Of a stretch of 55,384 nucleotides of DNA, positions 18,050 to 55,384 are shown piece after piece. The translations under genes and the position numbers were made by a program. Each line of letters begins with the position of its first letter. Position 1 is the first letter of the stretch. The DNA is taken from positions 1 to 55,384 of the forward strand of contig JASFYR010000020.1 of the NCBI GenBank assembly GCA_045047115.1, given 5' to 3'. The DNA is from Sulfurospirillum sp. (GTDB lineage: Bacteria; Campylobacterota; Campylobacteria; Campylobacterales; Sulfurospirillaceae). The notes below the pieces were generated by a model. That model had not been told where the DNA came from, made no database searches, and saw only the letters and a program-made list of their open reading frames with translations.

Positions 18050-18065
18050 ACTTGGAGAGCAACAA

Positions 18066-18230
18066 GGTTAATTATAATTATACTGTGAACTACCATTTGG
18101 TTAAAGAGCCAAAGGCTTCCTAACTAGCAACTTCCAACGAAGTTGAGCGAAAGGCTTTATGTTTTAAGTCCATAGGGATAGTTCCTAGCCCAAACGACTC
18201 TAATCCTCTTTTCAAGATAGTTTGTGATGC
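18066..18230 (-). ncRNA. Predicted TnpB omegaRNA (reRNA) with flank-derived guide; 5' boundary approximate
   Basis: Hairpins in the tnpB 3' end (CAACTTC-gttg-GAAGTTG; GGGCTAG-gaa-CTATCCC) plus the right-end hairpin. The guide would begin at 18084. Confidence 0.5.
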
Positions 18231-31905: not shown

Positions 31906-32949
31906 ATGACACTGCTAATAATATACTTTGCTCTTGCTGTTAGCATTTCATTTTTGTGCTCAATGCTTGAGTCAATACTTCTATCTTTAAACATGTCACA
32001 CATCAATGTTGTAAAGAGATCAAACCAAAAAATTGGCAAGTCTTTAGAGAAGCTAAAAAAAGAGTTAAATATCTCTTTGGCATCTATCCTGATTCTGAAT
32101 ACCATAGCAAATACGCTTGGAGCTGCTGGAGTCGGTGCACAGGCAAGTAAGCTTTTTGGCAACGAATATATGTTTTATGTATCAGCTGTCCTGACTTTGG
32201 TTATACTGTTTATTTCTGAAATTATTCCAAAGACTATCGGAGCTATGTATTATAAAGAGTTGGCACCCCTTGCTTCATATCTGATCAATTTTTTCATTTT
32301 TGTAACATATCCCCTGATAGTTGTCTCTATTTTTGTAACAAAAAAGATAGCAAATGATGAAAATGCAAATATAATCACCAGGGAAGAGCTTTTAGAGAGT
32401 ACGCTCATAAGTGAAAACGAAGGTGTGATAGATGAAAAAGAGTCTGATTACATAGAAAATATCTTAAGCCTGAATAAAAGTAAAGTTCATGAGATTCTAA
32501 CTCCCAGAAGCGTTATATTTGCGCTTGAGAAAGAGAAGCAAATCAAAGATATCATAAATAGACCCGGAATCAGAAAATTTTCCAGGGTTCCTCTGTATGA
32601 TGGCACAATCGACAATATAATCGGAGTAGTGCTAAGTAAAAAGATTTTTGAAGAGGCGATAAATACTCAGGATATCAAACTCGAAGAGCTGATGCAACCT
32701 ATATTTTCCATCAATGAAAATATACCGGTATCCTATACGCTCGATCTCTTTATTAAAAGAAAAGAACATATGTTTTTAGTAACCGACAGCTATGGACAAA
32801 CAGAGGGTATTGTAACGCTTGAGGATTGCATAGAGACCCTGCTTGGTATAGAGATTATGGATGAACTTGATACAACAGAAGATATGCAAAAACTGGCAAA
32901 AGAGAAAATGAAGAGTAAAAAAAAGAGGAAAAGCAGTCAGAAAGTTTGA
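31906..32949 (+). CDS. CNNM/CorC (DUF21 + CBS) membrane protein
   Basis: SFLCSMLES, SEIIPKT, ILTPR, GIVTLEDCIE. Confidence 0.88.
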   Translation: MTLLIIYFALAVSISFLCSMLESILLSLNMSHINVVKRSNQKIGKSLEKLKKELNISLASILILNTIANTLGAAGVGAQASKLFGNEYMFYVSAVLTLVILFISEIIPKTIGAMYYKELAPLASYLINFFIFVTYPLIVVSIFVTKKIANDENANIITREELLESTLISENEGVIDEKESDYIENILSLNKSKVHEILTPRSVIFALEKEKQIKDIINRPGIRKFSRVPLYDGTIDNIIGVVLSKKIFEEAINTQDIKLEELMQPIFSINENIPVSYTLDLFIKRKEHMFLVTDSYGQTEGIVTLEDCIETLLGIEIMDELDTTEDMQKLAKEKMKSKKKRKSSQKV

Positions 32950-33054
32950 TTTTTGTATAGGTGAACTAGCTTAAAGCCAAAATTTTATTATTTTTGTGAT
33001 AAAATTACATAAAAGGTATTTTTGATAAGCCTAAAAGTATAATTGGAGCTAAAA

Positions 33055-33639
33055 TTGGACAAAAAACTTAAAAAAACTGAACTTATACTTGAGAAATCAT
33101 TGGTTTTATTTTCAAAAAAAGGTTTTTACAGTACAACTATTCCAGATATCGCAAAAGCCATGAACATGAGTGTTGGAAATTTGTATAACTATTTTTCTTC
33201 AAAAGAGGAGTTGGCAAGAAGTGTCATAAGATACTCTTCTGATATATTGGGAGCAAAGATAAGAGTTATAAATGAGAGGGATATAGATACAAAGCAGAAG
33301 ATATATGAAATTGTAAAGTTATACTTTACTATGGCGATAGAACAACCTGAACATTTAGAATTTTTTCTCAGAGTCTATCTTTCAAATAAAGAGATTTTTA
33401 AAGATGGCTGTGAGGGCATGGTCTGTGTTGCTGCATTTGTTACAGAACTTATGATATTTTTTGAAGAGGGCGTTAGAAGAAAAGAGCTTAGAAATCAAAA
33501 CTTTTTCTCTGCTTTTGGCCTTTTTATGGGCTATTTGGGTGGTTTTGTATTTTTAAATGGAGAAGGCATACTTGATGACAAGCTTGAAAACTATGTAGAT
33601 GATATATCCGAAAATATATACAGAGCTCTAAAAATATAG
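33055..33639 (+). CDS. TetR/AcrR-family regulator, hydrogenase-associated
   Basis: GFYSTTIPDIAKAMNMSVGNLYNYFSSKEEL HTH. TTG 33055 follows GGAG; TTG 33043 is the alternative. Confidence 0.9.
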   Translation: MDKKLKKTELILEKSLVLFSKKGFYSTTIPDIAKAMNMSVGNLYNYFSSKEELARSVIRYSSDILGAKIRVINERDIDTKQKIYEIVKLYFTMAIEQPEHLEFFLRVYLSNKEIFKDGCEGMVCVAAFVTELMIFFEEGVRRKELRNQNFFSAFGLFMGYLGGFVFLNGEGILDDKLENYVDDISENIYRALKI

Positions 33640-33646
33640 TCAGTAT

Positions 33647-34537
33647 ATGTCCTGTTATCAATCTAAACAAACTATTATCTGGATTCAAGGTATCACTTGC
33701 AATGGAGACTCACACTCTTTTTTTAACTACTCACAAATGAAGAGTTTTGCTAAAAATTTTGAGATTCTTTATCATCCCCTGCTTGTGATGGATTATGATT
33801 TGGAGACTATTTTAAAGAGTAATGAGAATTATGATTATCTGATAGTGGAGGGTTCTTTTACGAAAGTCAAAGAGTATGTAGATAGAAGGGGATACTCTTT
33901 TAGCGAGTTGATTGATAATTTAGCCAAAAGAGCAAAATACATAATATGCGCCGGTAGTTGTGCAAGTTTTGGTGGACTTTTTAGGATCAGGGATGAAGAA
34001 AATATATATGGTGCCCTCTATGCAGGAGAAGAGAGAGGCGGATATTGGGATAAAAACCACAAAGTTATAAATATACCAGGATGCCCAATGCACCCAAAGT
34101 GGCTGATTGATACTCTTTTTGCACTGAAAAATGGAAAAGTCTTGTTATTGGATGAGTACTTGAGACCCAAAGAGATTTACTCATATTTTGTTCATCATGG
34201 CTGTATGAGAAATGAGTATTTTGAGTGGAAGATAGATACAAAAAATTTCGGTGAAAAAGAGGGTTGTCTCTTCTATGACCACGGATGCAGGGGTCCTATG
34301 ACTCATGCAAACTGCAATAAAATCTTATGGAACGAAGTAAGTTCTAAAACAAGAGCAGGTTCACCTTGTCTTGGATGCACCGAGCCTGATTTCCCCAGGG
34401 ACAATGTGTACGAAACTAAAAAGTATATGTCGCTTCCTGCCACTCCGGTTGGAGTCAGTAAGAGAGCATACTACTCTATAACCGGTGTGGCAAAAAGTTT
34501 TAAGATAGATAGGCTTGAGAAGAGGTTGATAAGATGA
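33647..34537 (+). CDS. hupS: Cytoplasmic [NiFe]-hydrogenase small subunit (group 2d-like)
   Basis: TCNGDSHS, GSCASFGG, PGCPMHP, HHGC and PCLGC; no Tat leader or TM anchor. Confidence 0.85.
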   Translation: MSCYQSKQTIIWIQGITCNGDSHSFFNYSQMKSFAKNFEILYHPLLVMDYDLETILKSNENYDYLIVEGSFTKVKEYVDRRGYSFSELIDNLAKRAKYIICAGSCASFGGLFRIRDEENIYGALYAGEERGGYWDKNHKVINIPGCPMHPKWLIDTLFALKNGKVLLLDEYLRPKEIYSYFVHHGCMRNEYFEWKIDTKNFGEKEGCLFYDHGCRGPMTHANCNKILWNEVSSKTRAGSPCLGCTEPDFPRDNVYETKKYMSLPATPVGVSKRAYYSITGVAKSFKIDRLEKRLIR

Positions 34538-35877
34538 TAACCAAAGAGATTATAGAGCGTATCGAGGGTGAAGCTACGCTTGAACTGGAGTGGAAGGGGA
34601 GTAAAATATCCTATGCAAAAATCAAGTTTTTAAACTACAGGGCTATCGAAGATATCTTGGTGGGCAGACATTTGTTAGATGCCTTGATGATAACTCCCAG
34701 AGTCTGTGGCATATGTTCACATTCGCATGTAAATGCAACCATACTTGCCATAGAGAATTGCTATAAAAACAGTGGTGTAGAGCTGAATCTCACAGAAAAA
34801 GCCAAACAGATACGAGAGCTTGTTATAAATGCCGAAAAGATACAAAACCATATAAAATGGTTCTATTTTTTGATACTGCCAGAGCTTTTCAAGATAAACA
34901 AAGATAAATTTCTTGCAACAGAGCCTTTTAAAGACAAAGAGTGGTTTGAAGCACAAAATGCCCTGAGTGACATACTGAAAATGGGAGCTATTTTTTCCGG
35001 ACAATGGCCTCATGGCTCCTATGTAATGACAGGCGGTGTTACATGCGATCCTCTTCAAAGCGATATATCAAATGCACAGAATTTCCTGTCAAATGTCTAT
35101 GATTTCTGCGAAGAGAGACTTTTCGGATGCAGTATCGATGAATTTTTAGAGTTGGACTCTATAACGGATTTGATGAATTTTGACTCTACTTTGGATATTG
35201 CCGTGACTTTTATGAAAGAGATGGGGTTTAACGGGATTGGAGAGAGCTATGATAGATTTATCTCTTTTGGCGAGAATCAAGGCATAGATATGCCAACCAA
35301 AGCGATAAAAACAAGACTCTACAAGGCAAATGTAAAGTTTGTTGAAGAGAGTTTGAAAAACAGCTTTTTCGAGAGTAAAAAGAGTGGTTTTACATACTCT
35401 AAGAGTGCTGTATATAAAAATGATTTTTATGAAGTGGGACCACTCGCGAGACTTATGATAAGCAAAGACAGTATGATACGAGATTGTCACAGAAGGTGTA
35501 CAGATTCTGTTATCACAAGAATTATAGCCAGAGTAAAAGAGATAGCTATACTTCTAAAAAGATGTAAATATATACTTGAAAACATAGATATAAAACAACC
35601 ATCCCTTCAAACTCCAAGATTTATGCCAAAACATATCACAGCAGAGGGCATAGGTGTGGTAGAGGCAGCGAGAGGAACTCTTATACATAAGATTAAAGTA
35701 GAAAAGGGAAGGATAGAAAGATATGATATCATCCCACCGACTGTGTGGAATCTTGGCAACGGAAGTCTACAAAATCCGTCTATTGCACAAAAAGCTATCA
35801 TAGGACTTGACAGTGTGAAAAAAGCAGATTTTGTTTTTAAAAGTTTTGATATATGCTCTGTCTGCACTACACAATAA
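34534..35877 (+). CDS. hupL: Cytoplasmic [NiFe]-hydrogenase large subunit (group 2d-like)
   Basis: RIEG, L1 RVCGIC, L2 FDICSVCTTQ at the very C-terminus. Confidence 0.88.
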   Translation: MITKEIIERIEGEATLELEWKGSKISYAKIKFLNYRAIEDILVGRHLLDALMITPRVCGICSHSHVNATILAIENCYKNSGVELNLTEKAKQIRELVINAEKIQNHIKWFYFLILPELFKINKDKFLATEPFKDKEWFEAQNALSDILKMGAIFSGQWPHGSYVMTGGVTCDPLQSDISNAQNFLSNVYDFCEERLFGCSIDEFLELDSITDLMNFDSTLDIAVTFMKEMGFNGIGESYDRFISFGENQGIDMPTKAIKTRLYKANVKFVEESLKNSFFESKKSGFTYSKSAVYKNDFYEVGPLARLMISKDSMIRDCHRRCTDSVITRIIARVKEIAILLKRCKYILENIDIKQPSLQTPRFMPKHITAEGIGVVEAARGTLIHKIKVEKGRIERYDIIPPTVWNLGNGSLQNPSIAQKAIIGLDSVKKADFVFKSFDICSVCTTQ

Positions 35878-35964
35878 AATAATCACAAAAAAATTATCTT
35901 TCTTATGCCAAACTTAAGAAAAACTCTTTAATTTTCTATAGTTTTGTTACTTTTTTACCCACCA

Positions 35965-36048
35965 AAGTGAATATTCATTCGATAAATTAATATTCACTTG
36001 TATTTTAAGTAAAATTATGCTTTAATTTTACTAATAAATAACTATTCA
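35965..36048 (+). promoter_or_regulatory. hydA promoter with candidate operator repeats
   Basis: Perfect IR AAGTGAATATT-N13-AATATTCACTT (35965-35999); TTGTAT-17-TTTAAT with extended TG; TAAAT-N4-ATTCA at 36035-36048. Confidence 0.6.
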
Positions 36049-36092
36049 TTCATTTATGGATAAATATAAACTCAGTTATTAAGGAGAGTTGA

Positions 36093-37247
36093 ATGGAGCA
36101 AGAAAAACTGTACCAGAGTCTAAGCGATAGACTAGGTAAGCTTTCGAAATTTCCAAGGATGAAAGATGATGGCAAATCAATCTCGTCTCTATTGGAAGAG
36201 CATGGTTTCTCAAGAAGAGATTTTATGAAATGGGCCGCTAGCATGACTGCTATGTTGTCCCTTCCGGCATCTTTTTCACCATTGATGGCGCAAGCTGCGG
36301 AGTTGACCGACAGACTGCCTGTTATATGGTTGCATATGGCGGAGTGTACAGGTTGCAGCGAGAGTCTGTTAAGAAGCGCTGCACCGACTATAGACAGCCT
36401 CATATTTGATTATATTTCACTTGAATATCATGAAACACTTATGGCAGCGGCCGGTTGGCAAGCTGAACAAACGCTGGAGGAATCAATCAAAAAATATAAA
36501 GACAAGTATATTTTGATGGTTGAGGGCGGAATACCTTCAGGAAAAAGTAGTTTTTATTTGACTGTTGGGCCTCAGGGACAAACAGGCGAATCTCACGCAA
36601 AAGAGGCAGCAGATAATGCTTTGGCTATATTTGCAATTGGCACATGTTCGAGTTTTGGTGGAGTTCAAGCAGCTGCTCCAAACCCTACAAATGCTCAACC
36701 TCTCCACAAGGTCACGCAAAAACCTGTCATAAATGTACCTGGTTGCCCTCCAAGTTCAAGAAATATAGTAGGAAATGTACTGCAATATATACTCTTTGGC
36801 ACACTTCCTGCCCTTGATGCCTACAATCGTCCAAAATGGGCTTACGGAAAGAGAATCCACGATCAGTGCGAGAGAAGAGGTCATTTTGATGCGGGTGAGT
36901 TTGTACAGGAGTTTGGCGATGAGGGAGCAAAAAAAGGATATTGCCTATATAAAGTGGGGTGTAAGGGTCCTTATACATTTAATAACTGCTCAAGAGAGAG
37001 ATTCAATCAGCACACATCTTGGCCTGTCCAAGCCGGACATGGCTGTATAGGTTGTAGTGAACCGGATTTTTGGGATAAAATGGGACCATTTGAAATGCCT
37101 CTGGCCGATAGACTTTACAGTAGTGTGTTTAGAGGCTTGGGTGCTGATGCAACAGCAGATAAGATAGGTGCAACCATACTCACAGTAACAGCATTGGGTA
37201 TAGCTGCACACGCTGCAATCTCTGTAATAAAAAAACCGAAGGAGTAG
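36093..37247 (+). CDS. hydA: Membrane-bound uptake [NiFe]-hydrogenase small subunit (group 1b)
   Basis: Tat motif SRRDFMK, ECTGCSES, PGCPP, C-terminal TM anchor with His. Confidence 0.95.
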   Translation: MEQEKLYQSLSDRLGKLSKFPRMKDDGKSISSLLEEHGFSRRDFMKWAASMTAMLSLPASFSPLMAQAAELTDRLPVIWLHMAECTGCSESLLRSAAPTIDSLIFDYISLEYHETLMAAAGWQAEQTLEESIKKYKDKYILMVEGGIPSGKSSFYLTVGPQGQTGESHAKEAADNALAIFAIGTCSSFGGVQAAAPNPTNAQPLHKVTQKPVINVPGCPPSSRNIVGNVLQYILFGTLPALDAYNRPKWAYGKRIHDQCERRGHFDAGEFVQEFGDEGAKKGYCLYKVGCKGPYTFNNCSRERFNQHTSWPVQAGHGCIGCSEPDFWDKMGPFEMPLADRLYSSVFRGLGADATADKIGATILTVTALGIAAHAAISVIKKPKE

Positions 37248-37251
37248 ATAA

Positions 37252-38973
37252 ATGTCAAAAAGAGTAGTAGTTGATCCAATCACAAGGATAGAAGGACATT
37301 TAAGAATAGAAGTGGTTGTGGATGATAATAATGTAGTACAAGAGGCATATTCATCTTCGACCTTATGGAGAGGAATAGAGACAATCCTAAAGGGAAGAGA
37401 TCCAAGAGATGCCGGTTTTTTTACTCAGAGGATTTGTGGTGTTTGCACCTACTCTCATTATAGAGCAGGAATTGAAGCAGTTGAAAATGCACTTGGTATC
37501 AATCCTCCTTTAAATGCAAAATTGGTTAAAACTTTAATGAATATAGCCTTGTATCTGCATGATCACACCGTGCATTTTTACCATCTTCACGGACTTGACT
37601 GGGTAGATGTTGTATCTGCTTTGAAGGCTGATCCTCACAAAGCAGCGCAAGAGGCATTTAAGTATAGCTCAAACCCTATGGCGTGTGGTGCAGATGATTT
37701 GGTGGAGACACTAAAAAGAGTAGGCGACTTTGTAAAAAAGGGAAATCTCGGACCATTTGCAAATGCTTACTGGGGGAATAAAACCTATAAATTTACACCT
37801 GAGCAAAATTTGATAGCTCTTTCACACTATCTAAAAGCTTTGGAGATGCAGAGAATTGCTGCTCAAATGATGGCTATATTTGGCGGAAAACAGCCACATC
37901 CTCAAAGTTTGAGTGTTGGTGGAGTGACTTGTATAATGGACTTGCAAGATCCTGCAAGACTCGGTGAGTTTTTAACGAAATTTAAAGAGATGGCTGATTT
38001 TGTGAATCGTGCATACTATCCTGATCTCGTAATGGCTGCCAAAGCATATGCTACAGAGCCTAGTGTAAATGCAGGCTTGGGAACGGCAAATCTCATGACA
38101 TCAAAAGAATTTTTACTAAATGCAGATGAGTATCTATTTGATAGTGGTATTATTTTAAATGGTGATATATCCAAGGTCTATGAGATAAACGAAGATAAGA
38201 TCACGGAAGAGGCGACACACTCATGGTATGTTGATAATGAACCTCTTCACCCTTATAACGGAAAGACAAATCCAAACTATACCGGATTTCAAGATGCTCA
38301 AACAGTAAACGGAAAAGGTGAGTTGGAGACAACTAAAGTTTTAAAAGAGAATGAAAAATACTCTTGGATAAAATCACCCAGATATGATGGCAAACCTATG
38401 CAGGTTGGTCCACTTTCAAATATAGTTATAAACTATGCAAAAGGAAACAAGAGAGTTACAAAGGTTGTTGACCAGTTCTTAAAAGATACAGGACTTCCTC
38501 TAAAGGCTGTATTTTCCACTCTTGGACGAACTGCTGCCAGAATGCTTGAAGCCAAGACTATAGCAGACAATGGGCTAGAAACTTTTAACTCTTTGATCCA
38601 AAACCTAAAAGTTGATGACTCAACATATACTACATATCAAATAGATAACAACAAAGAGTACAAGGGTAGATTTATGGGGAATGCACCAAGAGGAATCCTT
38701 AGCCACTGGGTCAGAATAAAAAATGGTGTTATAGAGAATTGGCAAGCAGTCGTACCATCAACATGGAATGCCGGTCCAAGAGATGCCAAAGGAGTCAGGG
38801 GACCTTATGAAGAATCTTTGATTGGTCTTAAAATTGCAGATTTATCTCAACCGCTTGAAATCATAAGAGTCATACACTCTTTTGATCCGTGTATCGCCTG
38901 CGCTGTACACTTGATGGATACAAAAGGCAATGAGTTAAGTGAGTACAAAGTAGATTTAAGCTGTTTTTGCTAA
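37252..38973 (+). CDS. hydB: Uptake [NiFe]-hydrogenase large subunit
   Basis: RICGVC and DPCIACAVH, followed by a cleavable C-terminal extension. Confidence 0.96.
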   Translation: MSKRVVVDPITRIEGHLRIEVVVDDNNVVQEAYSSSTLWRGIETILKGRDPRDAGFFTQRICGVCTYSHYRAGIEAVENALGINPPLNAKLVKTLMNIALYLHDHTVHFYHLHGLDWVDVVSALKADPHKAAQEAFKYSSNPMACGADDLVETLKRVGDFVKKGNLGPFANAYWGNKTYKFTPEQNLIALSHYLKALEMQRIAAQMMAIFGGKQPHPQSLSVGGVTCIMDLQDPARLGEFLTKFKEMADFVNRAYYPDLVMAAKAYATEPSVNAGLGTANLMTSKEFLLNADEYLFDSGIILNGDISKVYEINEDKITEEATHSWYVDNEPLHPYNGKTNPNYTGFQDAQTVNGKGELETTKVLKENEKYSWIKSPRYDGKPMQVGPLSNIVINYAKGNKRVTKVVDQFLKDTGLPLKAVFSTLGRTAARMLEAKTIADNGLETFNSLIQNLKVDDSTYTTYQIDNNKEYKGRFMGNAPRGILSHWVRIKNGVIENWQAVVPSTWNAGPRDAKGVRGPYEESLIGLKIADLSQPLEIIRVIHSFDPCIACAVHLMDTKGNELSEYKVDLSCFC

Positions 38974-38982
38974 GGAGTAGTT

Positions 38983-39675
38983 ATGGGAAAGTTTAAAGAT
39001 TTATTGGTGAAGCGACATACTGAATTCTCACCTTTTTACAGATGGCACCATTGGATAAGATTTTTTTCAATCATGTTTTTGATTGTTAGTGGATTTTATA
39101 TAGCTTATCCGTTTTTGTCACCTGAAGTAGATCCGAATCCTACTGGATTTTTATATGCGAAGGGTAGAACATTTCATGAAATTGCAGGTTTTATTATGAT
39201 CTCTATGTTTATAGGAAAAATGTACTATTTTTTCTTTGTAAAATCAGATAGAAATGAGATGAGATCTTTTAAGGATCTCTTTAGTGTTAAAAAATGGATG
39301 AAGCAAACGGGATATTATCTTTTAGTAAGCAAACATCCTGTTTTGAGTGGTGCATACAATGTTATACAACTGGCTGCATATCTTGCTTTATATATCATGC
39401 TTACACTCTTGATATTAACAGGGCTAATTTTGTATATACACAATTACCATGATAGTTTTTTATCGTTTTTAACCACTCCGCTTATCTCTCTTGAGGTGAT
39501 GTTCGGAGGATTGGCCAGTGTTAGAGAAATTCACCATATATTAACTTGGGGAATAATTATATTTATCATAGCGCATGTCTATATGGCAGTTTTTAATGCT
39601 GTATACGGAAAAGAAGGAACAATAGATGCGATAGTCAGTGGATACAAGTGGGAAATTCCGGAGTCTGAAAAATAA
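38983..39675 (+). CDS. hydC: Ni/Fe-hydrogenase cytochrome b subunit
   Basis: RWHHWIR, FHEIAG, IHHILTW and AHVYMA heme-ligand segments. Confidence 0.93.
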   Translation: MGKFKDLLVKRHTEFSPFYRWHHWIRFFSIMFLIVSGFYIAYPFLSPEVDPNPTGFLYAKGRTFHEIAGFIMISMFIGKMYYFFFVKSDRNEMRSFKDLFSVKKWMKQTGYYLLVSKHPVLSGAYNVIQLAAYLALYIMLTLLILTGLILYIHNYHDSFLSFLTTPLISLEVMFGGLASVREIHHILTWGIIIFIIAHVYMAVFNAVYGKEGTIDAIVSGYKWEIPESEK

Positions 39676-39677
39676 TT

Positions 39678-40217
39678 ATGAAAATTTTAGTACTGGGGAT
39701 TGGCAATGTGATGTTCTCTGATGAGGGTATCGGAGTTCATCTTTGCCACTTTTTGGAAGAAAAATATGAGTTTTATTCGCAAAAGCATACTATTGATTTT
39801 ATAGATGGTGGGACATTGGCTCAAAGGCTAATTCCTATCATCTCCAAGTATGATTATCTTATAGTTCTTGATTGTGTGGATGCGAATGACGGAGTAATTG
39901 GGGATGTATATTTTTTTGATTTCGAAAATATCCCCGAATCCATCTCTTTTCAGGGAAGTGCACATGAAGTTGAAATGCTTCAGACTCTAAATATGATGGA
40001 TATGATTGGCGATAGACCACCTACCAAGATTATAGGAATCATACCTGAGATTGTGAGCGAGACGACACTCTGCTTGACAAAAGCTGTTGTTGAAGGTAGT
40101 GAATTGATGCAAAAGATATTTCTTAAACATATAAAAGAGCTTGATGTTGAGTACAGGGTGAAAAAAGATATAGATATACAAAGCGTAGCAGACAAAGCCT
40201 GCGCAAAATATAGGTAA
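39678..40217 (+). CDS. hydD: Hydrogenase maturation protease
   Basis: LGIGNVMFSDEGIG, DGGT, SAHE. Confidence 0.93.
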   Translation: MKILVLGIGNVMFSDEGIGVHLCHFLEEKYEFYSQKHTIDFIDGGTLAQRLIPIISKYDYLIVLDCVDANDGVIGDVYFFDFENIPESISFQGSAHEVEMLQTLNMMDMIGDRPPTKIIGIIPEIVSETTLCLTKAVVEGSELMQKIFLKHIKELDVEYRVKKDIDIQSVADKACAKYR

Positions 40218-40221
40218 AAAA

Positions 40222-41913
40222 ATGATTTTAGCATATGAGTTTGAATATGTATCAAAAAATTTGGTATTAGAAAGTTTTTTAAGAGTTATCAGCGAAGAGT
40301 TTGGCGCAAAATACAAAATTTGCAAAGAAAAAAATATAACCATACTTTATATAGATGAAGAGGAGGAAAGACAGCATGAGTTTGCTGATTTTCTCTCTTC
40401 AAGTCTTCCCGTATCTGTTTTTTTAAAATCTTCTAATGCTAAAGTAACAGATAGCATTAAAGGCAAAGAGTTAGATTTTTCAGATACTGCCATCTCTTTG
40501 CCTTTCACCAGAAGAGCGATAGAATTAGCAAAAGATGAAAATTCATTTTTTTACAGATCTCCATTTGTTCCAAATGAAGTTGGTTTCTCGAAGATTTTTC
40601 AAAGGATTTCTTTAAGCTTAGAAAATGCCAACGGACTTATGGTTGTAAACAACTCTGAAGGATACAATGATATATATAAGAGTATAGCAAATTCAATTAA
40701 AAATGGAGAGAAAGTAAAGATAAAAACTCCAAATGGTAATTTTGTATTTTTTAGAGTGAAAAAGGGTGCTTTTAAAGATATAGAGAGTTTTGAGATTATT
40801 CCAACAGATCTGTCTTTGGTGCAAAAGATGGTAAATCTAAGAGAAAACGAGATACAAGCCCTGGCTTTTTTGGAAAAACCTCTCATAAGAGCAAAAGTAA
40901 ATATGGTTTTTGAGACATTTGATATATTGCCCTCATCAAGAGTTAAAATTTCGATGCCAAAGACACCTATGTTGCAATTTATCTGCGAAGAGTTGTATAA
41001 AAACGGTGTAGAGTTTATAGCTAAAAGCAGTGATGATGTGGAGTATTCACACTTTTTGAGTTGCGATATAGATATTCCAAAAATTGCAAGTATGGAGGTT
41101 TCAATCCTCGAAAACGGTGAGATTTTTATCTTAAATGCAGATGGATTCAGCACACAAGAGTCAAAAAAAGGGCTAGAGAATTTAAAAGTTCCATCAATCA
41201 GACAATTTGTCTCAATTTTAAAAGAGAGAGAGCTTTTTAATGACAAAGCGAGCTGTTTCTATTTCAGTAAAAAATATGATGATGCCATAATGTACCATGA
41301 TGAAGAAAAATATAGTGTTCTCTCATTGGTTGAATTCCCAACTTTTTCTACTGTTAGAGAGCTTTTTAACCATATAAAAAAAGAGGATGAGAGTGGAGAA
41401 AAACTCATAGAGAACTATAAAAAAACATATCCCCAGCTTTACAAATCTATACAGAGGGTAAAGATTCCTAAAAAACTCTCAAATAATCTTTTCAACACAT
41501 TAAGATTTGTCTCCATAATCGTTGGATTTTCAGATGATTTTAAAAAGGCAGCCGATACTTTGATAGAGAAAGCGGAGGATTTTGGCGGACAAAAGGGAGT
41601 AAGGATAGACTTTAGGCTAAAAGATGAAAAAAAGATAAACTCCAAGTTCAACCCCTATCGTCTCTTGCGAAGTGCGATGAGTTTCAAGCTTGCAGGAGCA
41701 GATGATATGACTATGAGTTTTGGCATACTGGAGAGCTTTTCTTACTTTATATCAGACATTGCAGATTCTCACAAAGAGACATTAGGAAGCAATAAAATAA
41801 CATTGGGCGGCTCACTATTTGGTTATCCCCTCATAGCGGAGTTGGTTGCAAAAAATCTTCTACCTAATCATAAGATATATTTTAACCAAGAATTACCAAT
41901 CGATAATCTATAA
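40222..41913 (+). CDS. hydE: HydE hydrogenase accessory protein (epsilonproteobacterial, HypF-C-like)
   Basis: Position after hydD; KGVRIDF, SAMSFKLAG and LGGSLF segments. Confidence 0.75.
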   Translation: MILAYEFEYVSKNLVLESFLRVISEEFGAKYKICKEKNITILYIDEEEERQHEFADFLSSSLPVSVFLKSSNAKVTDSIKGKELDFSDTAISLPFTRRAIELAKDENSFFYRSPFVPNEVGFSKIFQRISLSLENANGLMVVNNSEGYNDIYKSIANSIKNGEKVKIKTPNGNFVFFRVKKGAFKDIESFEIIPTDLSLVQKMVNLRENEIQALAFLEKPLIRAKVNMVFETFDILPSSRVKISMPKTPMLQFICEELYKNGVEFIAKSSDDVEYSHFLSCDIDIPKIASMEVSILENGEIFILNADGFSTQESKKGLENLKVPSIRQFVSILKERELFNDKASCFYFSKKYDDAIMYHDEEKYSVLSLVEFPTFSTVRELFNHIKKEDESGEKLIENYKKTYPQLYKSIQRVKIPKKLSNNLFNTLRFVSIIVGFSDDFKKAADTLIEKAEDFGGQKGVRIDFRLKDEKKINSKFNPYRLLRSAMSFKLAGADDMTMSFGILESFSYFISDIADSHKETLGSNKITLGGSLFGYPLIAELVAKNLLPNHKIYFNQELPIDNL

Positions 41914-41960: not shown

Positions 41961-43640
41961 TTGGAAAAGTTTATAACTGTTTTTACACTTATCTCTTTTT
42001 TTACACCTCTCATCTCGGCTATTTTGGTTTTGGGAACTTTTAAAAAGATAGATTATAATGTCTATAAGATATCGGTGTTTTTCTCTTTTGTAGCAGTTTT
42101 GCTCTCTTTTACATCTTTGGTTCTCTTTTTTTGGGCAGAGATTTCTTCTGTTACTCTCTTTTCGCAAACTCTCTTTTCTCTTTATATTACACCACTTAGC
42201 ATAGTCGTCACTTTTTTTGTTTCACTTGTCTCCTTGGTTATACATCTATATTCGATAAAGTATATGTATGATGACGAGGGATATGTCAGATACTTTATAC
42301 TTTTGGATTTGATGATATTTGTCATATTTGGGCTCTTAAGTGTAGGCAATATCATCTTAATCGCATCTTTTTGGCACATGATGGGAGTTGTGTTGTATTT
42401 TCTACTTATACATAATTTTAGAAAAAAACAGACATACAGATATGGATTTTATACACTTTTTACACATCTTTTGGCTGATATTCCATTTTTGATAGCTCTT
42501 TATCTTATCTATAACTATTATAATACCACAGATTTAAAACTCTTTTTAGATACTGTTTCTACACATAAACAACTATATTTTGATGGTACAGATGTGAGCA
42601 TCGCTTCTGTTATAGCACTCTTTATCATGTTTGCTGCCATCATAAAATCAGCTCAATTTCCTTTTCATATTTGGCTTCCGTTTACACTGGAAGGTCCAAA
42701 TCCCATATCTGCTCTTATGCATGCGGGTATAGTAAATGCGGGTGCTTTCATAGCCAACAGATTTGCACCGCTTTTTATCCATGGCGAGATAGCTCTTCAT
42801 ATTGTTCTTATCACAGGCTTCATAACTGCGATACTGGGCTCCGCCTTGATGCTTATGCAAAATGATATAAAAAAAGCATTGGCCTACTCAACAGTCGGAC
42901 AGATGGGATATATGATGCTTGAAATAGGGGCAGGAGCTTTTGCTCTGGCTATATATCATATGATGGTACATGGTATCTTCAAGGCTTCTTTGTTTTTGGG
43001 CTCAGGCGGTGCTATACATGAAGCAAGAAATAAGTCAAATATTGATAAACAATCTGTATTTGACATATTTTTTTCAAAAACAAAATATAAAAAACCGGGC
43101 TTTTTTGAATACCTTGTGTTTGTGTTTGTAATTCCTGCTGCTGTAGCAATTTTTATCTTTTCACCACTTATCAAAGAGAATTCATTTGACAGTACTATAC
43201 TTTTTTATCTTTTTGCATGGGTTGGTGGGGCACAGGTTGTATATACTATGTATCATAGCCATAAAAGATTCAAAGCTCTGTTTTTCACAACTATAGGTTT
43301 TGCTCTGGCTCTCTTTGTTTATGTTGAGGCTGAACACTTTTTTGGAGGAATTTTGTATCCGAACAGAGAGCTTTTTAAAGCACTGTTTAGCTCAGCATCC
43401 TGGAGTAGTGCTCTGTTTTTTATGATTTATGGTGTTGTTTTTACTGTAGTTGTCCTGGTCTGGATTTTTGCATATCAAAAACTAGTCGATAAAAGTCCTT
43501 TTTTTTCACGATTTGGAGACCTGTATGATTTTATTTACAGAGTATTTGGCAGGGAGTTTTATATCCTTGATTTTTGCACATCCATATCAAAAAAGATGGT
43601 TGATTTTGCCGGATTTATAAACTTTAGGATGAAGTACTGA
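41961..43640 (+). CDS. dabB: DabB / NuoL-like membrane subunit of an inorganic-carbon pump
   Basis: KSAQFPFHIWLP, SALMHAGIVNAG, DIKKALAYSTVGQMG; lies upstream of a DUF2309 gene. Confidence 0.85.
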   Translation: MEKFITVFTLISFFTPLISAILVLGTFKKIDYNVYKISVFFSFVAVLLSFTSLVLFFWAEISSVTLFSQTLFSLYITPLSIVVTFFVSLVSLVIHLYSIKYMYDDEGYVRYFILLDLMIFVIFGLLSVGNIILIASFWHMMGVVLYFLLIHNFRKKQTYRYGFYTLFTHLLADIPFLIALYLIYNYYNTTDLKLFLDTVSTHKQLYFDGTDVSIASVIALFIMFAAIIKSAQFPFHIWLPFTLEGPNPISALMHAGIVNAGAFIANRFAPLFIHGEIALHIVLITGFITAILGSALMLMQNDIKKALAYSTVGQMGYMMLEIGAGAFALAIYHMMVHGIFKASLFLGSGGAIHEARNKSNIDKQSVFDIFFSKTKYKKPGFFEYLVFVFVIPAAVAIFIFSPLIKENSFDSTILFYLFAWVGGAQVVYTMYHSHKRFKALFFTTIGFALALFVYVEAEHFFGGILYPNRELFKALFSSASWSSALFFMIYGVVFTVVVLVWIFAYQKLVDKSPFFSRFGDLYDFIYRVFGREFYILDFCTSISKKMVDFAGFINFRMKY

Positions 43641-44380
43641 TGAATCTGCTATATACTACGGCTGTTTTGTTTTTATTGCCTCTGTTTCCACTGAGCTTGA
43701 TAACAAACAGAGTTTTGTCTGCTCTTAATCCAAGACTTTTTTCAACCACTCTGCTGGTACTGTTTATTGTCGGCAACATACTATTAAATTATGCGGATAT
43801 AGAGTCAAAAACCATCCTTTTTTTGGCGATTTTTACTATCTTGTTTTATAGTTTTAGACTACTTGGAGTAAAGAGTTTAAAAAATTTTATACTCTATCTC
43901 TATCCCATTGTCTCCTCTATTTCGCTTGTTTGGTATATGGTTGGTGGTGATGTTTTAGAGATTTTAGCTCTCAAAACTCCTGTTTTGGTACTGTTTTTGA
44001 CCCTTTTTACATTTTTGAGCGGACAATTTAGTGTTATTCATCAAAAAAGTATAAGTGGGCTAGGAGGAGTTATGCCAAGATTTTCCATACTTTTTATACT
44101 CTCTTTGCTTGGGCTCTCTTCATCTTTATTTTTTTGGGGCTATGAGCTTTTAGAGTTGGAATTTTCCAAGCTTCCTCTTTTTTATACCATTTTGCTTATC
44201 ATATCCTGGATTTTCATAAATTGGGGCAGTATAAAACTGTTTGAATGGCTTATATATGGAGAGTATAAACAAGATACTACATATGAAGACTTGAATGCCT
44301 GGCAGACTCTAGCTCTCTCTTTGATACTCTTTGGCAGTGCCGTGTTTTTTATCTTTTATGGCGCGAAAGGTCTGGTATGA
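43640..44380 (+). CDS. Polytopic membrane protein, partial antiporter-like; probable extra DAB subunit
   Basis: About 8 hydrophobic segments; SGLGGVMPRFS resembles NuoM/MrpD GGL...MP; overlaps both neighbours. Confidence 0.65.
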   Translation: MNLLYTTAVLFLLPLFPLSLITNRVLSALNPRLFSTTLLVLFIVGNILLNYADIESKTILFLAIFTILFYSFRLLGVKSLKNFILYLYPIVSSISLVWYMVGGDVLEILALKTPVLVLFLTLFTFLSGQFSVIHQKSISGLGGVMPRFSILFILSLLGLSSSLFFWGYELLELEFSKLPLFYTILLIISWIFINWGSIKLFEWLIYGEYKQDTTYEDLNAWQTLALSLILFGSAVFFIFYGAKGLV

Positions 44381-47300
44381 TTGTATCAAATGCAGAGATT
44401 TTATATATAAATTCGCTAATAGAAAATGCAGTTGATCTTTTTCATAACTTTTGGCCTATGACCTCTTTTATACACCACAATCCACTACATGGTTTTGAAG
44501 ATATACACTTTGAAAAAGCTATTTGCAAGGCAAGGACTTACTTTCACAATAGAAAATTTTTATCAAGGCAAGAGTATCAGAATTTTTATCAAGATGGAAA
44601 GATTAAGCCTGAAAAAATCAAATCAGAGATTGAGGATTATTGCAAAAAGAGAGGTTTGAGTCAGAGTTATGAGAAACTCTTCTTTCATATATTTGTCAAT
44701 GTTAAACACTCAGACACAAATCCAAAAATCCAGAATCCAAAAATAAAACTAATAAAAGAGAAACTAGGCAATACCTGTGCCTCTCGTCGTCACCAAAAAC
44801 TAGGTGTTAATTTTGGTTTTTGCGATGCCCTGGATTTACTCTATGGCAGTGAGCTTTGCGAGCATATAAACGAGAGACTAAATAAGATGGCTATGAGACA
44901 TCTTGATGAAGGTCAGGCAACTTGGCTTCCTGCAGATAAAGATAAGGGTATGTTTCTCTCATGGAGGAGACTGGTTACAAAAGATAGTCTCTTTTTCGAT
45001 AAATCTCTTCAACTCTGTAGAGTCTTAACTCAAAGTGACAAGCCCGAAGATGTGATATATTGGGTTTTAAATGAGTTGAAGATACCAAAAGATGAATGGG
45101 AAGATTTTTTTGTGTTACAATTTGGAAAATTGCATGGATGGACCGGTTTTCTACGCTGGAGAAGTACAAATAAAGACTATCTTCATCAGAGAAAATGCCC
45201 TGCGTACCTAGAGGATTTTTTAGCTATAAGACTCTACTTTCTCTACATGTATCTTCTAAAAACTGAAAAAAAGATAGGATATTTTCCTGATTTTGAGAGA
45301 CTAAAGCTTGAACTTTCCAAAAAAGAGAGTTTTTTAAGGATCGAGTACAACAGTAGGAAAATAGTGCCCAAATTTATAGACAGGTATGAGCAGGCACTGC
45401 AAAGCAACACTCTAGAGGATATATATGAAGAGTATATGATCTCTTACAATGAAAACTATAAACAAAAGAGTGCCCAAATTTTATATGCAGTTTTAAAAGA
45501 CTTTGGTGAAGATTTTAGTGATTATGTTGAGCTTTCAGACAATCTAAGAGAGTTTGAAGAGTACGAGGGTTTTATATGGCTTAAAGCGATGGAGGAGGGG
45601 TATATAGAAGATTTGATGAGAGAGATGTTGCCGAATATACAAAACCAAAGATTGTGCAATCCCAATGCCCAACTCTTCTTTTGTATAGATGTAAGAAGTG
45701 AAAGTATCCGAAGAGAGATAGAGAAGAGTGGAAATTTTGAGACTTATGGTATAGGCGGATTTTTTGGCATACCTCTGAAGCTTATAGATATGTCCAAAAA
45801 ATATGAATCCAATCTCTGTCCGGCTGTTATCAAACCTAAAAATATAGTCTATAAACTTGAAGAAGGAAAAGAGGCACAGAGTATAAAATTAAAAAAAGCA
45901 CTAAAGCATATATATCATGACCTGAAATACAACACAATGTCACCATATATAACGGTTGAAACCATAGGACTTCTGTTTGGTTTTGATTTTTATGGAAAGA
46001 CACTTTTGCCAAACTTTTATATGCCCCTAAGAGAAAAGCTTTTCAGCAAGGAGTATAGAGGCAAACTTTTGATCGACAAATACAACAAAAAAGAGATTTT
46101 GATCAAGATTGACTCTTTGCAAAAAGAGATTGCTAAAATCGCCATAAAAGAGAATTTTGCCTTAGATTGTAGCGGCTTAGATGGTGAATTGGAAGAATTT
46201 TTACAAATTGCCACCTCACACGAAGATACACTCAAGCTTCAAAAAGGCAGAATTGAGCCACTAACCAGCTTGGCACTTCGTCTCAATCTTATGCATTATG
46301 AAGAGATAAGACTTTTAAAATTGCTTCAAAATGAGTATCAAATCTCCTATTTTTATAAAACTAAACAAATAGAGCTGCTATCAAAAGTAGGATTTACCTT
46401 CCAAGAACAGCTCTTTTATGCCAAAAATGCACTAAAGCTTACAGGTTTGAGTGAAAATTTTGCTCCTGTTGTTATTTTTTGCGGACACGAAAGCAAATCT
46501 GAAAACAACCCTTATGAGTCTGCACTTGATTGCGGGGCATGTGGTGGAAAAAGCAGCGATACAAATGCGAGAGTTTTGAGCTATATCTTAAACAAACAAG
46601 AGATACAAGATGCACTAAAGCCTGACATCAGCATTCCTAAAGGTACGATTTTTGTAAGTGCTCTACACAATACAGTAACAGATAAGGTTCAAATCTATAC
46701 CGGTAATATTCCAAAAAACAGACTTCAAGAGATAGATGAGATTCAAGCAAAACTGTATATTGCCAGTGAAAATTCTGCACTACAAAGAGCTAAAAAACTA
46801 CCTTTTGCCAAAGAACTAAAGAGAAAAAAGGCTTTGGCATTTATGCGAAAAAATTCACAAGACTGGTCACAAACAAGACCGGAGTGGGGTTTGGCAACAA
46901 ACCACTCTTTTGTCATAGCACCTAGAGATATAAGCAGAGGTATAGAGTTTGAAAATAGAGTCTTTTTGCACTCTTATGACTACACTAAAGACAAAACCGG
47001 ATACTATCTGGAAATAATTCTCTCTGCACCACTTGTAATTGGTGAGTGGATAAATATGGAGCACTTTTTCTCATCTTTGGATAACCGCTCTTTTGGAAGC
47101 GAAAGCAAGGTTTACCATAATGTGGTAGGCAGATTCGGTGTAATAAGTGGCAATATTAGTGATTTAAGAACAGGTTTGGCAGCTCAAAGTGTCCATAAAA
47201 GAGGTAAAATATATCATGAACCCATAAGATTACTGACCTTTATAGATGCACCTTTTGGCAAATACAGAGTTAGCATAGACAAGATAAAAAAAGTTTCACA

Positions 47301-47418: not shown

Positions 47419-47726
47419 TAATGCAAAAGATGAAAAAAGTGGAGATAATAACAGAGGGATCGAACCTTGAGATGTTAAAGAGGATACTGGGCAAGATCGA
47501 TATACCGGGTTACACTATATTTCACAACCTTGAGGGCATGGGCAAACATGGCTTTCACGAAGGGCATCTGCTCTTCAATGACGAAGATGCCCTGGTGATG
47601 CTTATGAGTGTTGTCGAGCCTGGGCAAGCTGAAGATATAGCTCTTGGACTGGAGCCTTTTTTGCAAAAACACTCCGGTGCTATATTTTTAAGTGATACTA
47701 TCAGAGCAAAGGCACAAAAAAATTGA
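47415..47726 (+). CDS. P-II-like (SbtB-like) signalling protein
   Basis: MKKVEIITEG...GYTI...GMG.HG...SGAIFLSD P-II-type pattern; ATGA overlap with dabA. Confidence 0.8.
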   Translation: MIMQKMKKVEIITEGSNLEMLKRILGKIDIPGYTIFHNLEGMGKHGFHEGHLLFNDEDALVMLMSVVEPGQAEDIALGLEPFLQKHSGAIFLSDTIRAKAQKN

Positions 47727-52847: not shown

Positions 52848-52869
52848 TAAAATACTGAATAATAATTCA
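52848..52869 (+). promoter_or_regulatory. hypB -10 box plus palindromic candidate operator
   Basis: TAAAAT 52848-52853 followed by TGAAT-AATA-ATTCA 52856-52869. Confidence 0.55.
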
Positions 52870-52886
52870 TTCATTAAGGAAAAAAT

Positions 52887-53639
52887 ATGTGTGCAGATTG
52901 CGGATGCAGTATAACAGATCACGAAACAGAGCATCACCATCATCATAGCCATAACCATGAGCATTTACAAGATAACCCCCAGCTCAATGACAAAAAGACT
53001 ATAGAGGTGATAACAAAGATTTTAGATAAAAATGACCACGAAGCAGCTCACAACAGAGCTCATTTTGAGGCACATGGGGTTTTAGGTATAAATCTTATGA
53101 GTAGCCCAGGAAGCGGAAAGACAACACTTTTAGAGTATTTAACTGATGTTGCTGAGTTTAAATTTGGAGTCATAGAGGGAGATTTAGAGACAAATAAAGA
53201 TGCGGATCGCCTCAAAAGTAAAGGTATAGAAGCTCATCAGATCCAAACCGGCTCAGCTTGTCATTTGGATGCATTTATGGTGCATAAAGCACTTCATCAT
53301 ATAGATTTGGACAAGATTGATGTGTGCTTTGTAGAGAATGTCGGCAACCTTGTCTGTCCTGCCAGCTACGATGTAGGAACACATCTAAACATAGTCTTGG
53401 TCAGCATCCCTGAGGGTGAAGACAAAATAGCAAAATACCCTGTTATGTTTAGAAAAGCCGATCTTATACTCTTCACCAAAACAGACCTTTTACGATATTT
53501 CAAATACGACATAGAGGCAGAGAAAAATAGTGCAAGAGCCCTAAAACCAAATGTCGATATCCTGGAGATAAATATAAATGACAAAGAGAGCATAAAAAGG
53601 GTGGCAAATTGGATAAAGTTTAAAAGGGAGATGAGATAA
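52887..53639 (+). CDS. hypB: Hydrogenase nickel-insertion GTPase HypB
   Basis: CADCGC, His-rich stretch, SSPGSGKTT, CHLDA, ENVGNLVCP. Confidence 0.97.
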   Translation: MCADCGCSITDHETEHHHHHSHNHEHLQDNPQLNDKKTIEVITKILDKNDHEAAHNRAHFEAHGVLGINLMSSPGSGKTTLLEYLTDVAEFKFGVIEGDLETNKDADRLKSKGIEAHQIQTGSACHLDAFMVHKALHHIDLDKIDVCFVENVGNLVCPASYDVGTHLNIVLVSIPEGEDKIAKYPVMFRKADLILFTKTDLLRYFKYDIEAEKNSARALKPNVDILEININDKESIKRVANWIKFKREMR

Positions 53640-53911
53640 TGTGTCTTTCCATACCAAGTAAAGTAGTAGCCATAGATGAGAACAATATGGCAACAGTAGA
53701 TACCATGGGAGTCAAAAGAGAAGTGACACTTGACCTTATAGGCGAAAAGGTAGATATAGGCGATTACGTACTTATACATGTAGGTTTTGCTATGAATAAA
53801 ATCAGCCAGGAAGAAGCATTAGAGAGTATAAAAGTCTATGATGAGATTGTGAAGAAGATGAAAAGCGAAGAGATAGACCCGGCAGAGGGAGATGCAAACT
53901 ATGCAACTTGA
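53639..53911 (+). CDS. hypC: Hydrogenase chaperone HypC
   Basis: MCLSIP and GDYVLIHVGFAM. Confidence 0.97.
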   Translation: MCLSIPSKVVAIDENNMATVDTMGVKREVTLDLIGEKVDIGDYVLIHVGFAMNKISQEEALESIKVYDEIVKKMKSEEIDPAEGDANYAT

Positions 53912-55010
53912 TTTGATAAATGGTTTTAGAAATCCCGAGCACATAAAAGCACTCTCGAAAGCTATAAAAAAAGAGTGCAAATCCAAGATAAATGTCATGG
54001 AGGTTTGTGGAGGTCACACTCATACTATTATGAAATTTGGTTTACCTCAAATCCTGCCTGAACTCATAGAGTTTATACATGGCCCAGGGTGTCCCGTATG
54101 CATCATGCCTAAAGAGAGGATAGACCATGCCATAGCACTAGCAAGCATGGACGATGCAATCCTGGCAACTCTAGGAGACATGATACGAGTTCCCGGGAGC
54201 AAAACATCTTTGCAAAAACTAAGAGCAGAGGGCAGAGACATAAGGTCTCTATACTCTCCTTTGGATGTTTTAAAAATAGCAAAAGAGAATCCTGATAAAA
54301 AGGTGATATTTTTTGCCATAGGGTTTGAGACTACAACTCCTATGACTGCCTCTGTTTTGCAAGAGTGTATAAAACAGGACATAAAAAATCTATATTTCCA
54401 CATCAACCATGTAACAGTTCCCGAGCCAATTGACGCAATAATGTCAGGAGGAGACTCTCGTATAAACGCATTTTTAGGACCTTCGCATGTAAGCGTTATA
54501 ACAGGATACGGTATATTTGAACCTATATCCAAAAGATACAATACTCCCATAGTCGTAGCAGGTTTTGAGCCAGTCGATGTGATGGAGGGTATCTTGATGT
54601 TAGTCAGGCAGTTTAACAATGGAATTTGTGAAGCACAGAACCAATACACCAGAGCCGTATCCAAAGAGGGAAACATAAATGCCCAAAATCTCATAGATAA
54701 GTATATGGATAGAAGAGATCACTTTAAATGGAGAGGTTTGGGAGATATAAAAAACAGTGCACTAAAACTTAGAGGTGAGTATGCAAAGTATGATGCAGAA
54801 GTCGTCTTTGATGAGATTTTATCAAAAGAACCGATAGACGACCATAAACTCTGTATCTGTGGAGATATACTCAAAGGAAATGCCAAACCGTTTGACTGTA
54901 AGGTCTTTGGCAAAGCATGCACACCAAACTCTCCTATGGGCTCTTGTATGGTTTCTAGTGAGGGTGCCTGCGCAGCATACTATAAGTATGGTCAATTTAT
55001 AAAGGAATAA
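53901..55010 (+). CDS. hypD: Hydrogenase maturation protein HypD
   Basis: MEVCGGHTH, GPGCPVC, GFETT, CMVSSEGACAA. Start at 53901 or 53892. Confidence 0.97.
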   Translation: MQLDLINGFRNPEHIKALSKAIKKECKSKINVMEVCGGHTHTIMKFGLPQILPELIEFIHGPGCPVCIMPKERIDHAIALASMDDAILATLGDMIRVPGSKTSLQKLRAEGRDIRSLYSPLDVLKIAKENPDKKVIFFAIGFETTTPMTASVLQECIKQDIKNLYFHINHVTVPEPIDAIMSGGDSRINAFLGPSHVSVITGYGIFEPISKRYNTPIVVAGFEPVDVMEGILMLVRQFNNGICEAQNQYTRAVSKEGNINAQNLIDKYMDRRDHFKWRGLGDIKNSALKLRGEYAKYDAEVVFDEILSKEPIDDHKLCICGDILKGNAKPFDCKVFGKACTPNSPMGSCMVSSEGACAAYYKYGQFIKE

Positions 55011-55013
55011 GAT

Positions 55014-55384
55014 ATGCATATACCTGATGGTTATCTCTCACCCACTACAGTAGTGGCTACCTATGCTGTTGTTGCCCCATTGTGGGTCTATGGTTTTAAA
55101 AAATTAAAAGCCTCTCTAAACGAAGAGACTCTGCCTCTCATCGGAGCATTGAGTGCTATGAGTTTTATAATTATGATGTTTAACATACCAATACCCGGAG
55201 GTACAAGTGGTCACGCAGTAGGTGCAGCACTCATCGCTATACTCTTTAACCCCTGGATTGGTTTTGTATCGGTCTCTTTGGTTCTTTTGATTCAAGCTGT
55301 TGTTTTTGGAGACGGAGGAATATCCACATTGGCGGCAAATGCACTCTCTATGGCATTTGTTGGCTCTTTTGTGGGGTATTATAG
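55014..55384 (+). CDS. cbiM: NikM/CbiM ECF-type nickel/cobalt transporter substrate subunit, partial
   Basis: Manual translation MHIPDGYLSP...NIPIPGGTSGHAVG...FGDGG; runs off the window. Confidence 0.9.
   Translation, partial: MHIPDGYLSPTTVVATYAVVAPLWVYGFKKLKASLNEETLPLIGALSAMSFIIMMFNIPIPGGTSGHAVGAALIAILFNPWIGFVSVSLVLLIQAVVFGDGGISTLAANALSMAFVGSFVGYY

Follow-up and report, generated by a model that had tools for sequence, protein, structure and literature searches.

The Proteobacterial H2-sensing cascade joins a cytoplasmic two-subunit hydrogenase that lacks both leader and cleavable tail (HoxBC/HupUV) to a kinase (HoxJ/HupT) and an activator (HoxA/HupR), and its targets are the uptake hydrogenase and the maturation genes. 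Among the main oxidisers of H2 in vents, sediments and aquifers are free-living Campylobacterota and Aquificota. Analysis of a 55,384-nucleotide contig of a Sulfurospirillum sp. (JASFYR010000020.1; the whole contig is called the window here), placed in Campylobacterota near Sulfurospirillaceae by its named homologs, points to a TetR-family regulator encoded directly upstream of a group 2d hydrogenase (HupSL) and the uptake hydrogenase genes hydABC. Because it is strictly co-inherited with HupSL, carries an invariant pair of cysteines and is tracked by an 18-bp palindrome (the box, TGAATGA-N4-TCATTCA) before hydA and hypB, this TetR very probably represses the hyd and hyp genes.

Group 2d enzymes (HuaSL/HupSL, Aquifex hydrogenase III) are of the same family as the enzyme in the window, and same-position genes of Sulfurospirillum and Aliarcobacter, before hydAB, have been classed as 2d (PMC12286921; published statements here and below are taken from excerpts of the sources cited). 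HydDB treats the role of group 2d as unresolved, possibly the generation of reductant or regulation (PMC5037454), and the Campylobacterota enzyme has been named H2-sensing, with metabolic alternatives (PMC2628731; PMC4584964). No output partner is named in these excerpts; TetR is mentioned once, directly 5' of hupSL in S. multivorans and guessed to repress hupSL (Kruse et al., PMC5357620), and goes unmentioned in the one supplement of PMC12286921 that was searched. Group 2c enzymes, linked to diguanylate cyclases, are putative sensors defined, as here, by an adjacent signalling gene (PMC5037454), but they keep a cleavable tail and their own protease, and their output is cyclic di-guanosine monophosphate rather than a repressor. 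No operator or TetR-controlled hydrogenase regulon in Campylobacterota was found in the searched literature, outside which most subscription journals lie. The position of tetR beside hupSL and a sensing role for group 2d are thus already in print, each untested there; added here are the co-inheritance, the invariant cysteine pair and a box that tracks TetR. The predicted hyd/hyp regulon would probably correct the published guess that TetR serves hupSL alone.

A preliminary description of the window had pictured tetR, hupS and hupL as tightly linked upstream of hydABC, HupS as free of Tat leader and anchor, HupL as free of a cleavable tail, and the window as lacking a HoxJ/HoxA-type pair, and in all of this it was right. 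Open reading frame (ORF) coordinates confirm a 7-bp gap between tetR and hupS and an ATGA overlap between hupS and hupL, followed by a 215-bp spacer and hydA-hydB-hydC-hydD-hydE (Table 1); family scans recover TetR_N, the small and large hydrogenase subunits, a cytochrome b and a maturation protease. Since tetR directly precedes hupS in 75 of 80 loci (tetR-hypF is found in three, and a contig edge ends two), the linkage exceeds chance, and tetR-hupS-hupL-hydABC is a conserved Campylobacterota module. HupS starts at its catalytic domain, with neither an RRxFxK leader nor a HydA-type anchor, and HupL ends in DICSVCTTQ with no C-terminal extension (all 91 HupL frames of the family stop at this position), so that the cytoplasmic traits of HoxBC/HupUV are present; absence of leader, anchor and tail is by itself no proof of sensing. 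The gene order equals the transducer-small-large-uptake order of Afipia hoxJ-hoxB-hoxC-hoxK-hoxG-hoxZ, with TetR in the position of the kinase. In contrast to the Proteobacterial cascade, HupL falls in a separate clade, no kinase or HoxA ortholog was found in this genome, and the output is a one-component TetR with a predicted sigma-70-type operator. HoxJ/HupT queries of the whole genome matched only generic kinase domains (at most 36% identity, the N-terminal 139 residues unmatched), a HupR query matched only two generic sigma-54 activators (32% and 26%), and the one pair of kinase and regulator genes in the window that was tested, at 9935-11859, is of OmpR type, not NtrC/PAS type.

TetR and HupS were sought in 401 genomes from the order: both are present in 172, TetR alone in seven, HupS alone in four and neither in 218. 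The two thus occur together in 172 of the 183 genomes with either, although related genomes are not independent in such counts. Both HupS-only genomes that were checked (two of the four) proved to be contig breaks, and all five genomes in which tetR is parted from hupS or hupL keep both subunits elsewhere. Presence and absence of the pair alternate within families (f1, f4, f7, f8, f11 and f12). In a phylum-wide sample hydA is far more widespread (147 of 151 genomes) than TetR (29), and the TetR-HupSL pair is therefore an optional add-on to the uptake hydrogenase. For Aquificota, co-inheritance rests on one locus, L183, which holds a group 2d pair.

The regulator contains an N-terminal helix-turn-helix (PF00440 TetR_N, 53.8 bits against a cut-off of 24), and its AlphaFold2 model has the nine-helix fold of the family, with a C-terminal ligand/dimer domain and a confidence (predicted local distance difference test) of 91, falling to 73-77 in the CxxxxC loop. 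A profile search of 1.84 billion representatives returned 12 matches at E 1e-30 or better, followed by generic TetRs; the best match leads to orthologs named from Aquifex aeolicus, Hydrogenivirga, Hydrogenobacter, Thermocrinis and Persephonella, and Aquificota are the other phylum known for group 2d hydrogenase. The motif DGCEGMVC, to which the preliminary description had drawn attention, holds C123 (at 33409) and C128 (at 33424), and the pair is invariant in both phyla: all 78 loci whose rows reach the region have CxxxxC (two of 80 rows ended short of it), as do 120 of 120 proteins of each of two homolog lists, Aquificota orthologs included. Three TetR paralogs lack CxxxxC in the same form. 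Foldseek retrieved TetR-family proteins, best Bacillus FadR (YsiA; template modelling score 0.78-0.81), which at 16-19% identity shares the fold, a near-identical operator and the same base-reading residues, the invariant Gly45 and Tyr48 of the present subfamily matching Gly42 and Tyr45 of FadR. FadR, however, senses long-chain acyl-CoA and controls fatty-acid breakdown, and the TetR described here has the invariant CxxxxC loop and predicted hydrogenase targets; with the FadR equivalog model NF053878 of NCBIfam it scores 38.5 bits, below the cut-off of 200. In the model both cysteines fall in the loop that joins helices 6 and 7, which is modelled with lower confidence; in FadR this region changes shape when the ligand binds (PMC5397183).

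A paralog 43% identical to this TetR (G000 C21:32666-33247, minus strand; also in L111, L112 and L113) has the same recognition helix and a different cysteine pattern. It is divergent from a rhodanese-like gene and lies beside tungstate/molybdate transport and formate dehydrogenase-like genes (labels from sequence); a strong box (22.8) stands 5' of it in L112, and a similar rhodanese has a box in L285. This paralog may be a sister regulator acting on formate or sulfur metabolism.

Three related palindromes occur in the window, two between hupL and hydA and one upstream of hypB, and these are the three best matrix sites of the 2.14-Mb genome. The FadR box, WTGAATGAMTANTCATTCAN, is nearly the same, and is bound by FadR as a dimer of dimers via Gly42 and Tyr45 (PMC5397183). 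Since an exact pattern in the base code of the International Union of Pure and Applied Chemistry matched 36 of 151 genomes and missed this one, being both too strict and too noisy for counts, counting was switched to a matrix, trained on 26 sites and scored on fetched upstream regions. A site that agrees with the consensus at no fewer than 14 of the 18 positions is present in 50 of the 53 spacers between hupL and hydA but in only 5 of the 80 regions 5' of tetR. With the matrix, a score of 8.8 or above was reached 5' of hydA in each of the 28 remaining TetR-bearing genomes in the phylum sample, and 25 of these reached 14 or above; two of the 28 have a contig in common with training loci. Among 97 hydA genes from TetR-less genomes, only 4 reached 8.8: none of 47, 1 of 44 from additional families and 3 of 6 from f1, the family of the window, some of these genes perhaps not being first in their operons. 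The 44 exclude L277, with too little upstream DNA, and 13 genes for long-frame small subunits, none of which has a box; of 19 loci missed by the first hydA finder, seven TetR-less ones were scored separately and 12 are TetR-bearing (seven read directly, five without hydA). Where hydA has been moved or inverted (L055, L087, L100) the box stays with hydA, and many genomes have a second box upstream of the membrane-protein/hypB operon. Aquificota-type loci carry the box 5' of genes for uptake-hydrogenase small subunits (L170 and L174; scores 21.8 and 18.5) and also of hyp units; of 11 such loci the ortholog lies beside hyp genes in seven, two long loci show no hydrogenase neighbour, and two are uninformative. 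Ten exact-pattern hits away from the main cluster were fetched: five precede membrane-subunit genes, one a complex I-like operon and one a rhodanese, one lies near a transporter and two lie inside genes; the two box-marked membrane-subunit operons that were read through encode group 4 hydrogenases with Ni ligands. In L280 and L281 a methyl-accepting chemotaxis gene with its own box diverges from a box-marked hydrogenase operon, a hint of H2-linked taxis under the same regulator.

Binding of the box by this TetR is to be weighed against a reader of another kind, a different protein or a promoter element, with TetR doing some other job such as repressing hupSL only, as Kruse et al. supposed. In such a case one would point to the box kept in three TetR-less f1 genomes and one f4 genome, to the near silence of hupL in S. 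multivorans (PMC5357620), to the minority of loci with a box 5' of tetR (L062, L085, L091, L093, L110, L179) and to base-reading Gly and Tyr residues common to many TetRs (PMC5397183). This explanation is improbable, given that 93 of 97 hydA genes of TetR-less genomes are boxless, in the same families too, that no conserved site stands 5' of tetR-hupSL in 75 of 80 loci, and that box and TetR co-occur in a second phylum. Fur was set aside as the reader; its box has a centre of 3 rather than 4 nt, and TetR-less genomes are mostly boxless.

It is highly likely, on the evidence of sequence comparison, that TetR binds the box and, equally, that it controls hydABC, the hyp/nickel-uptake genes and, in one family, group 4 hydrogenases. 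That it acts by repression rather than activation is probable at a somewhat lower grade. Among 76 box flanks, a TAnAAT hexamer ends 2 nt 5' of the palindrome in 11, more often than at any other spacing, and within 0-5 nt in 22, a modest signal suggestive of repressor geometry; the hypB site is 2 nt downstream of a TAAAAT hexamer and 2 nt upstream of an AAGGA ribosome site. A generic sigma-70 scan did not usefully place the hydA promoter.

Several observations weigh against an H2-responsive TetR regulon. The three genome sites scoring at least 13 are no more numerous than those of shuffled matrices (2-26), so that only their position is informative; the box outlives loss of TetR in the four genomes mentioned, among them G229, G370 and G198, which have no TetR ortholog and boxes scoring 16-19; and in the Aquificota-type loci L168 and L169 the DNA retrieved around tetR holds no hydrogenase gene. 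In published expression data, S. multivorans hydB is nearly constitutive, rising about twofold with H2, not significantly (PMC5357620); in A. butzleri under H2 hynAB rises 2.3-6.2-fold and huaSL falls, but the contrast is not H2-specific, since 1191 of 2260 genes changed; and hynAB of Sulfurospirillum hDNRA2 showed no difference, though formate there yields H2 (PMC12286921).

Metals regulate hydABC in H. pylori (review PMC6682613), and TetR might itself be a sensor of nickel or another metal that replaces NikR, with the two cysteines as ligands. The box upstream of nickel-uptake/hyp genes would suit such a role, and no NikR_C domain was found in this genome or in three of four other TetR-bearing genomes tested. 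G070, however, has NikR as well as TetR, and L170 has a NikR-like gene close to tetR; the alignment of this TetR subfamily has no invariant His; the same repressor geometry is found at nickel import and at nickel enzymes, for which a metal sensor would be expected to act in opposite directions; and the tie to HupSL is left unexplained. Metal sensing is therefore very improbable.

The Glu, Arg and Cys residues needed for catalysis are retained by 73-74 of the 74 HupL sequences, so HupSL is an enzyme and not a relic; the Ni-binding L1 and L2 motifs are intact. In the HupL tree the Campylobacterota sequences form an 18-row clade on a long branch with support of 100/100; the rows for comparison were 2a-like (one), 2b (two), 2c-like (one) and group 1 (two), and the tree holds no large subunit from Aquificota. 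By this sequence comparison HupL is group 2d, a clade of its own apart from groups 1, 2a, 2b and 2c. HupSL as a group 2b sensor was rejected, HupL lying outside the 2b clade with no linked PAS kinase/NtrC-type regulator and no bulky Phe. Low turnover, insensitivity to O2 and a requirement for the enzyme in H2-dependent expression are further 2b traits, for which the published record on group 2d offers indirect hints (PMC12286921, PMC10052474, PMC4149538). Bulky Ile and Phe at the gas channel are a feature of group 2b sensors; by alignment Ile60 is invariant in HupL but also present in 2a/2c rows, and the HupS proximal motif is CxGN/D where group 2b has CGGC, the medial Pro being kept. The last HupL residue (35869-35877) is Gln, where most hydrogenases have His (family: His 45, Gln 26, Lys 3 of 74), and the HupL family has an invariant His-x-Lys-Trp in place of the usual His-x-x-His.

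We propose that TetR would be a dedicated repressor of H2 metabolism, whose box would usually overlap the transcription starts of hydABC and of the hyp/nickel-uptake operon, and that tetR-hupSL, mostly outside box control, would be expressed steadily at a low level. The input would be HupSL, a cytoplasmic hydrogenase of low abundance but competent: with H2 present it would reduce a redox or metal site of CxxxxC at the pocket entrance, directly or via a small carrier, and the reduced repressor would leave the DNA. For HupSL as the input to TetR the chances are about even; the Cys loop as receiver of the signal is less likely than not, and passage of electrons from H2 through HupSL to that loop, with no kinase or second messenger, is somewhat more doubtful still. 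Of the H2-sensing model in the preliminary description, control of hyd and hyp by a Cys-containing TetR is well supported by box, co-inheritance and the invariant cysteine pair, while the HupSL relay is consistent with gene order, co-inheritance and the published low abundance or activity.

Alternatively, TetR may repress hyd/hyp through the box but sense thiol/quinone redox, sulfane sulfur or O2, HupSL being a metabolic enzyme that shares the operon and reduces ferredoxin for the reverse tricarboxylic acid cycle or recycles H2. The retained catalytic residues suit this reading, as do the closest solved structure to HupL, the respiratory group 2a enzyme Huc, the reductant role proposed in print (PMC5357620, PMC5037454, PMC2628731) and the repression of S. 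denitrificans hydrogenase activity by thiosulfate (review PMC6682613). In three genomes (G334, G256, G235; 99-100% complete) hupSL is really lost and TetR is intact with both cysteines, and the box is retained in the first two and decayed in the third; a further TetR-only genome, G202, has a divergent large subunit. The TetRs of the three carry 3, 5 and 3 changes at conserved columns (median 1, range 0-10), one in each case beside Cys123, a post-hoc hint of relaxed selection. Also unfavourable to HupSL as a sensor, the 2b Phe column is Leu in HupL and mostly Thr, Val or Ser in the family; and genes that lie side by side can be inherited together without any functional tie. A predicted complex of HupS, HupL and one TetR chain, scoring 0.26 and 0.29 against a mark of 0.32, carries no weight for or against contact. 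A purely metabolic HupSL, on the other hand, fits poorly with a pair that stays together where the operon is broken (the five genomes above), with HupS lacking TetR only through assembly break or fragment (two of four checked) and with the absence of a partner subunit. Nor does it sit well with huaSL decreasing when H2 is supplied (PMC12286921), or with the scant protein or activity where sought: Sulfurospirillum proteomes lacked HupSL (PMC6242987), Aquifex Hase III proved difficult to detect (PMC10052474), and S. denitrificans had the hydrogenase transcript without soluble H2-uptake activity (PMC4149538). We regard it as possible but unlikely.

If HupSL does pass electrons directly to TetR, Campylobacterota and Aquificota would share a third, one-component path of H2 sensing, in which an enzyme supplies a TetR with its effector in the form of an electron. 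Even without HupSL as sensor, the TetR regulon would be a regulator of H2 metabolism not found described in the searched papers. Given a named regulator with two invariant cysteines, an 18-bp site, named target promoters and genomes that have naturally lost one component, the way in which hydrogenase synthesis is matched to H2 can be put to the test by a few direct experiments.

Table 1. Coordinates of the hydrogenase-related features and candidate operators in the window
Feature	Position	Strand	Basis or remark
tetR, TetR/AcrR-family regulator of a tight Campylobacterota and Aquificota subfamily	33043..33639	+	Pfam TetR_N only; 198 aa from TTG
hupS, 296 aa	33647..34537	+	family scans, alignment
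hupL (HuaL), group 2d large subunit, 447 aa	34534..35877	+	four Ni-ligating Cys, Glu13 and Arg380 retained
candidate operator, distal hydA site, AAAGTGAATATTCATTCG	35964..35981	.	score 14.5
candidate operator, proximal hydA site, TAAATAACTATTCATTCA	36035..36052	.	score 18.1; top site of the genome
hydABCDE, group 1b membrane-bound uptake hydrogenase, cytochrome b, protease, hydE	36093..41913	+	family scans
candidate operator upstream of hypB, TGAATAATAATTCATTCA	52856..52873	.	score 13.0
hypB-hypC-hypD and start of a CbiM/NikM-like membrane protein	52887..55384	+	contig end cuts the unit

The likely start of tetR is the TTG at 33055 (residue 5), preferred by homologs and by the Atlas record. 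hydABCDE would form an operon under TetR control, and hypBCD with the membrane-protein gene a second regulated unit; hydE, without Pfam or NCBIfam match, is presumably so named from gene order, and the membrane protein after hypD we take to be CbiM/NikM-like. A CNNM/CBS (CorC-like) transporter gene lies 5' of tetR (31906-32949), as in many close relatives. Between hydE and hypF is a unit for a DAB inorganic-carbon pump (41961-47726; NuoL-like DabB, an unknown membrane protein, DabA and a P-II-like protein), which, given its nearly gapless insertion there, may be co-transcribed with hydABC; no dabA match was seen in the relatives' loci listed. Divergent from hypB is a 247-aa ORF (52127-52870, minus strand) with no Pfam match, presumably transposase-like (IS1595-like); similar ORFs occupy the interval from hypF to the hyp operon of L001 and L106, which makes it a conserved resident of hydrogenase clusters. 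HydA-like small subunits with frames of 806-871 aa and a long N-terminal part (L247, L249, L250, L267-L273, L275, L276 and L278), from several free-living families, possibly belong to a fused or unusual hydrogenase. At 17166-19951 a partial Mutator-family transposase adjoins an IS200/IS605 element (tnpA and a TnpB/Cas12f-like gene). In Sulfurimonas paralvinellae (L165, NZ_CP041407.1) the entire tetR-hupSL-hydABC-hyp cassette lies on a 49.8-kb element adjoining a site-specific integrase, which suggests that the cassette moves as a unit.

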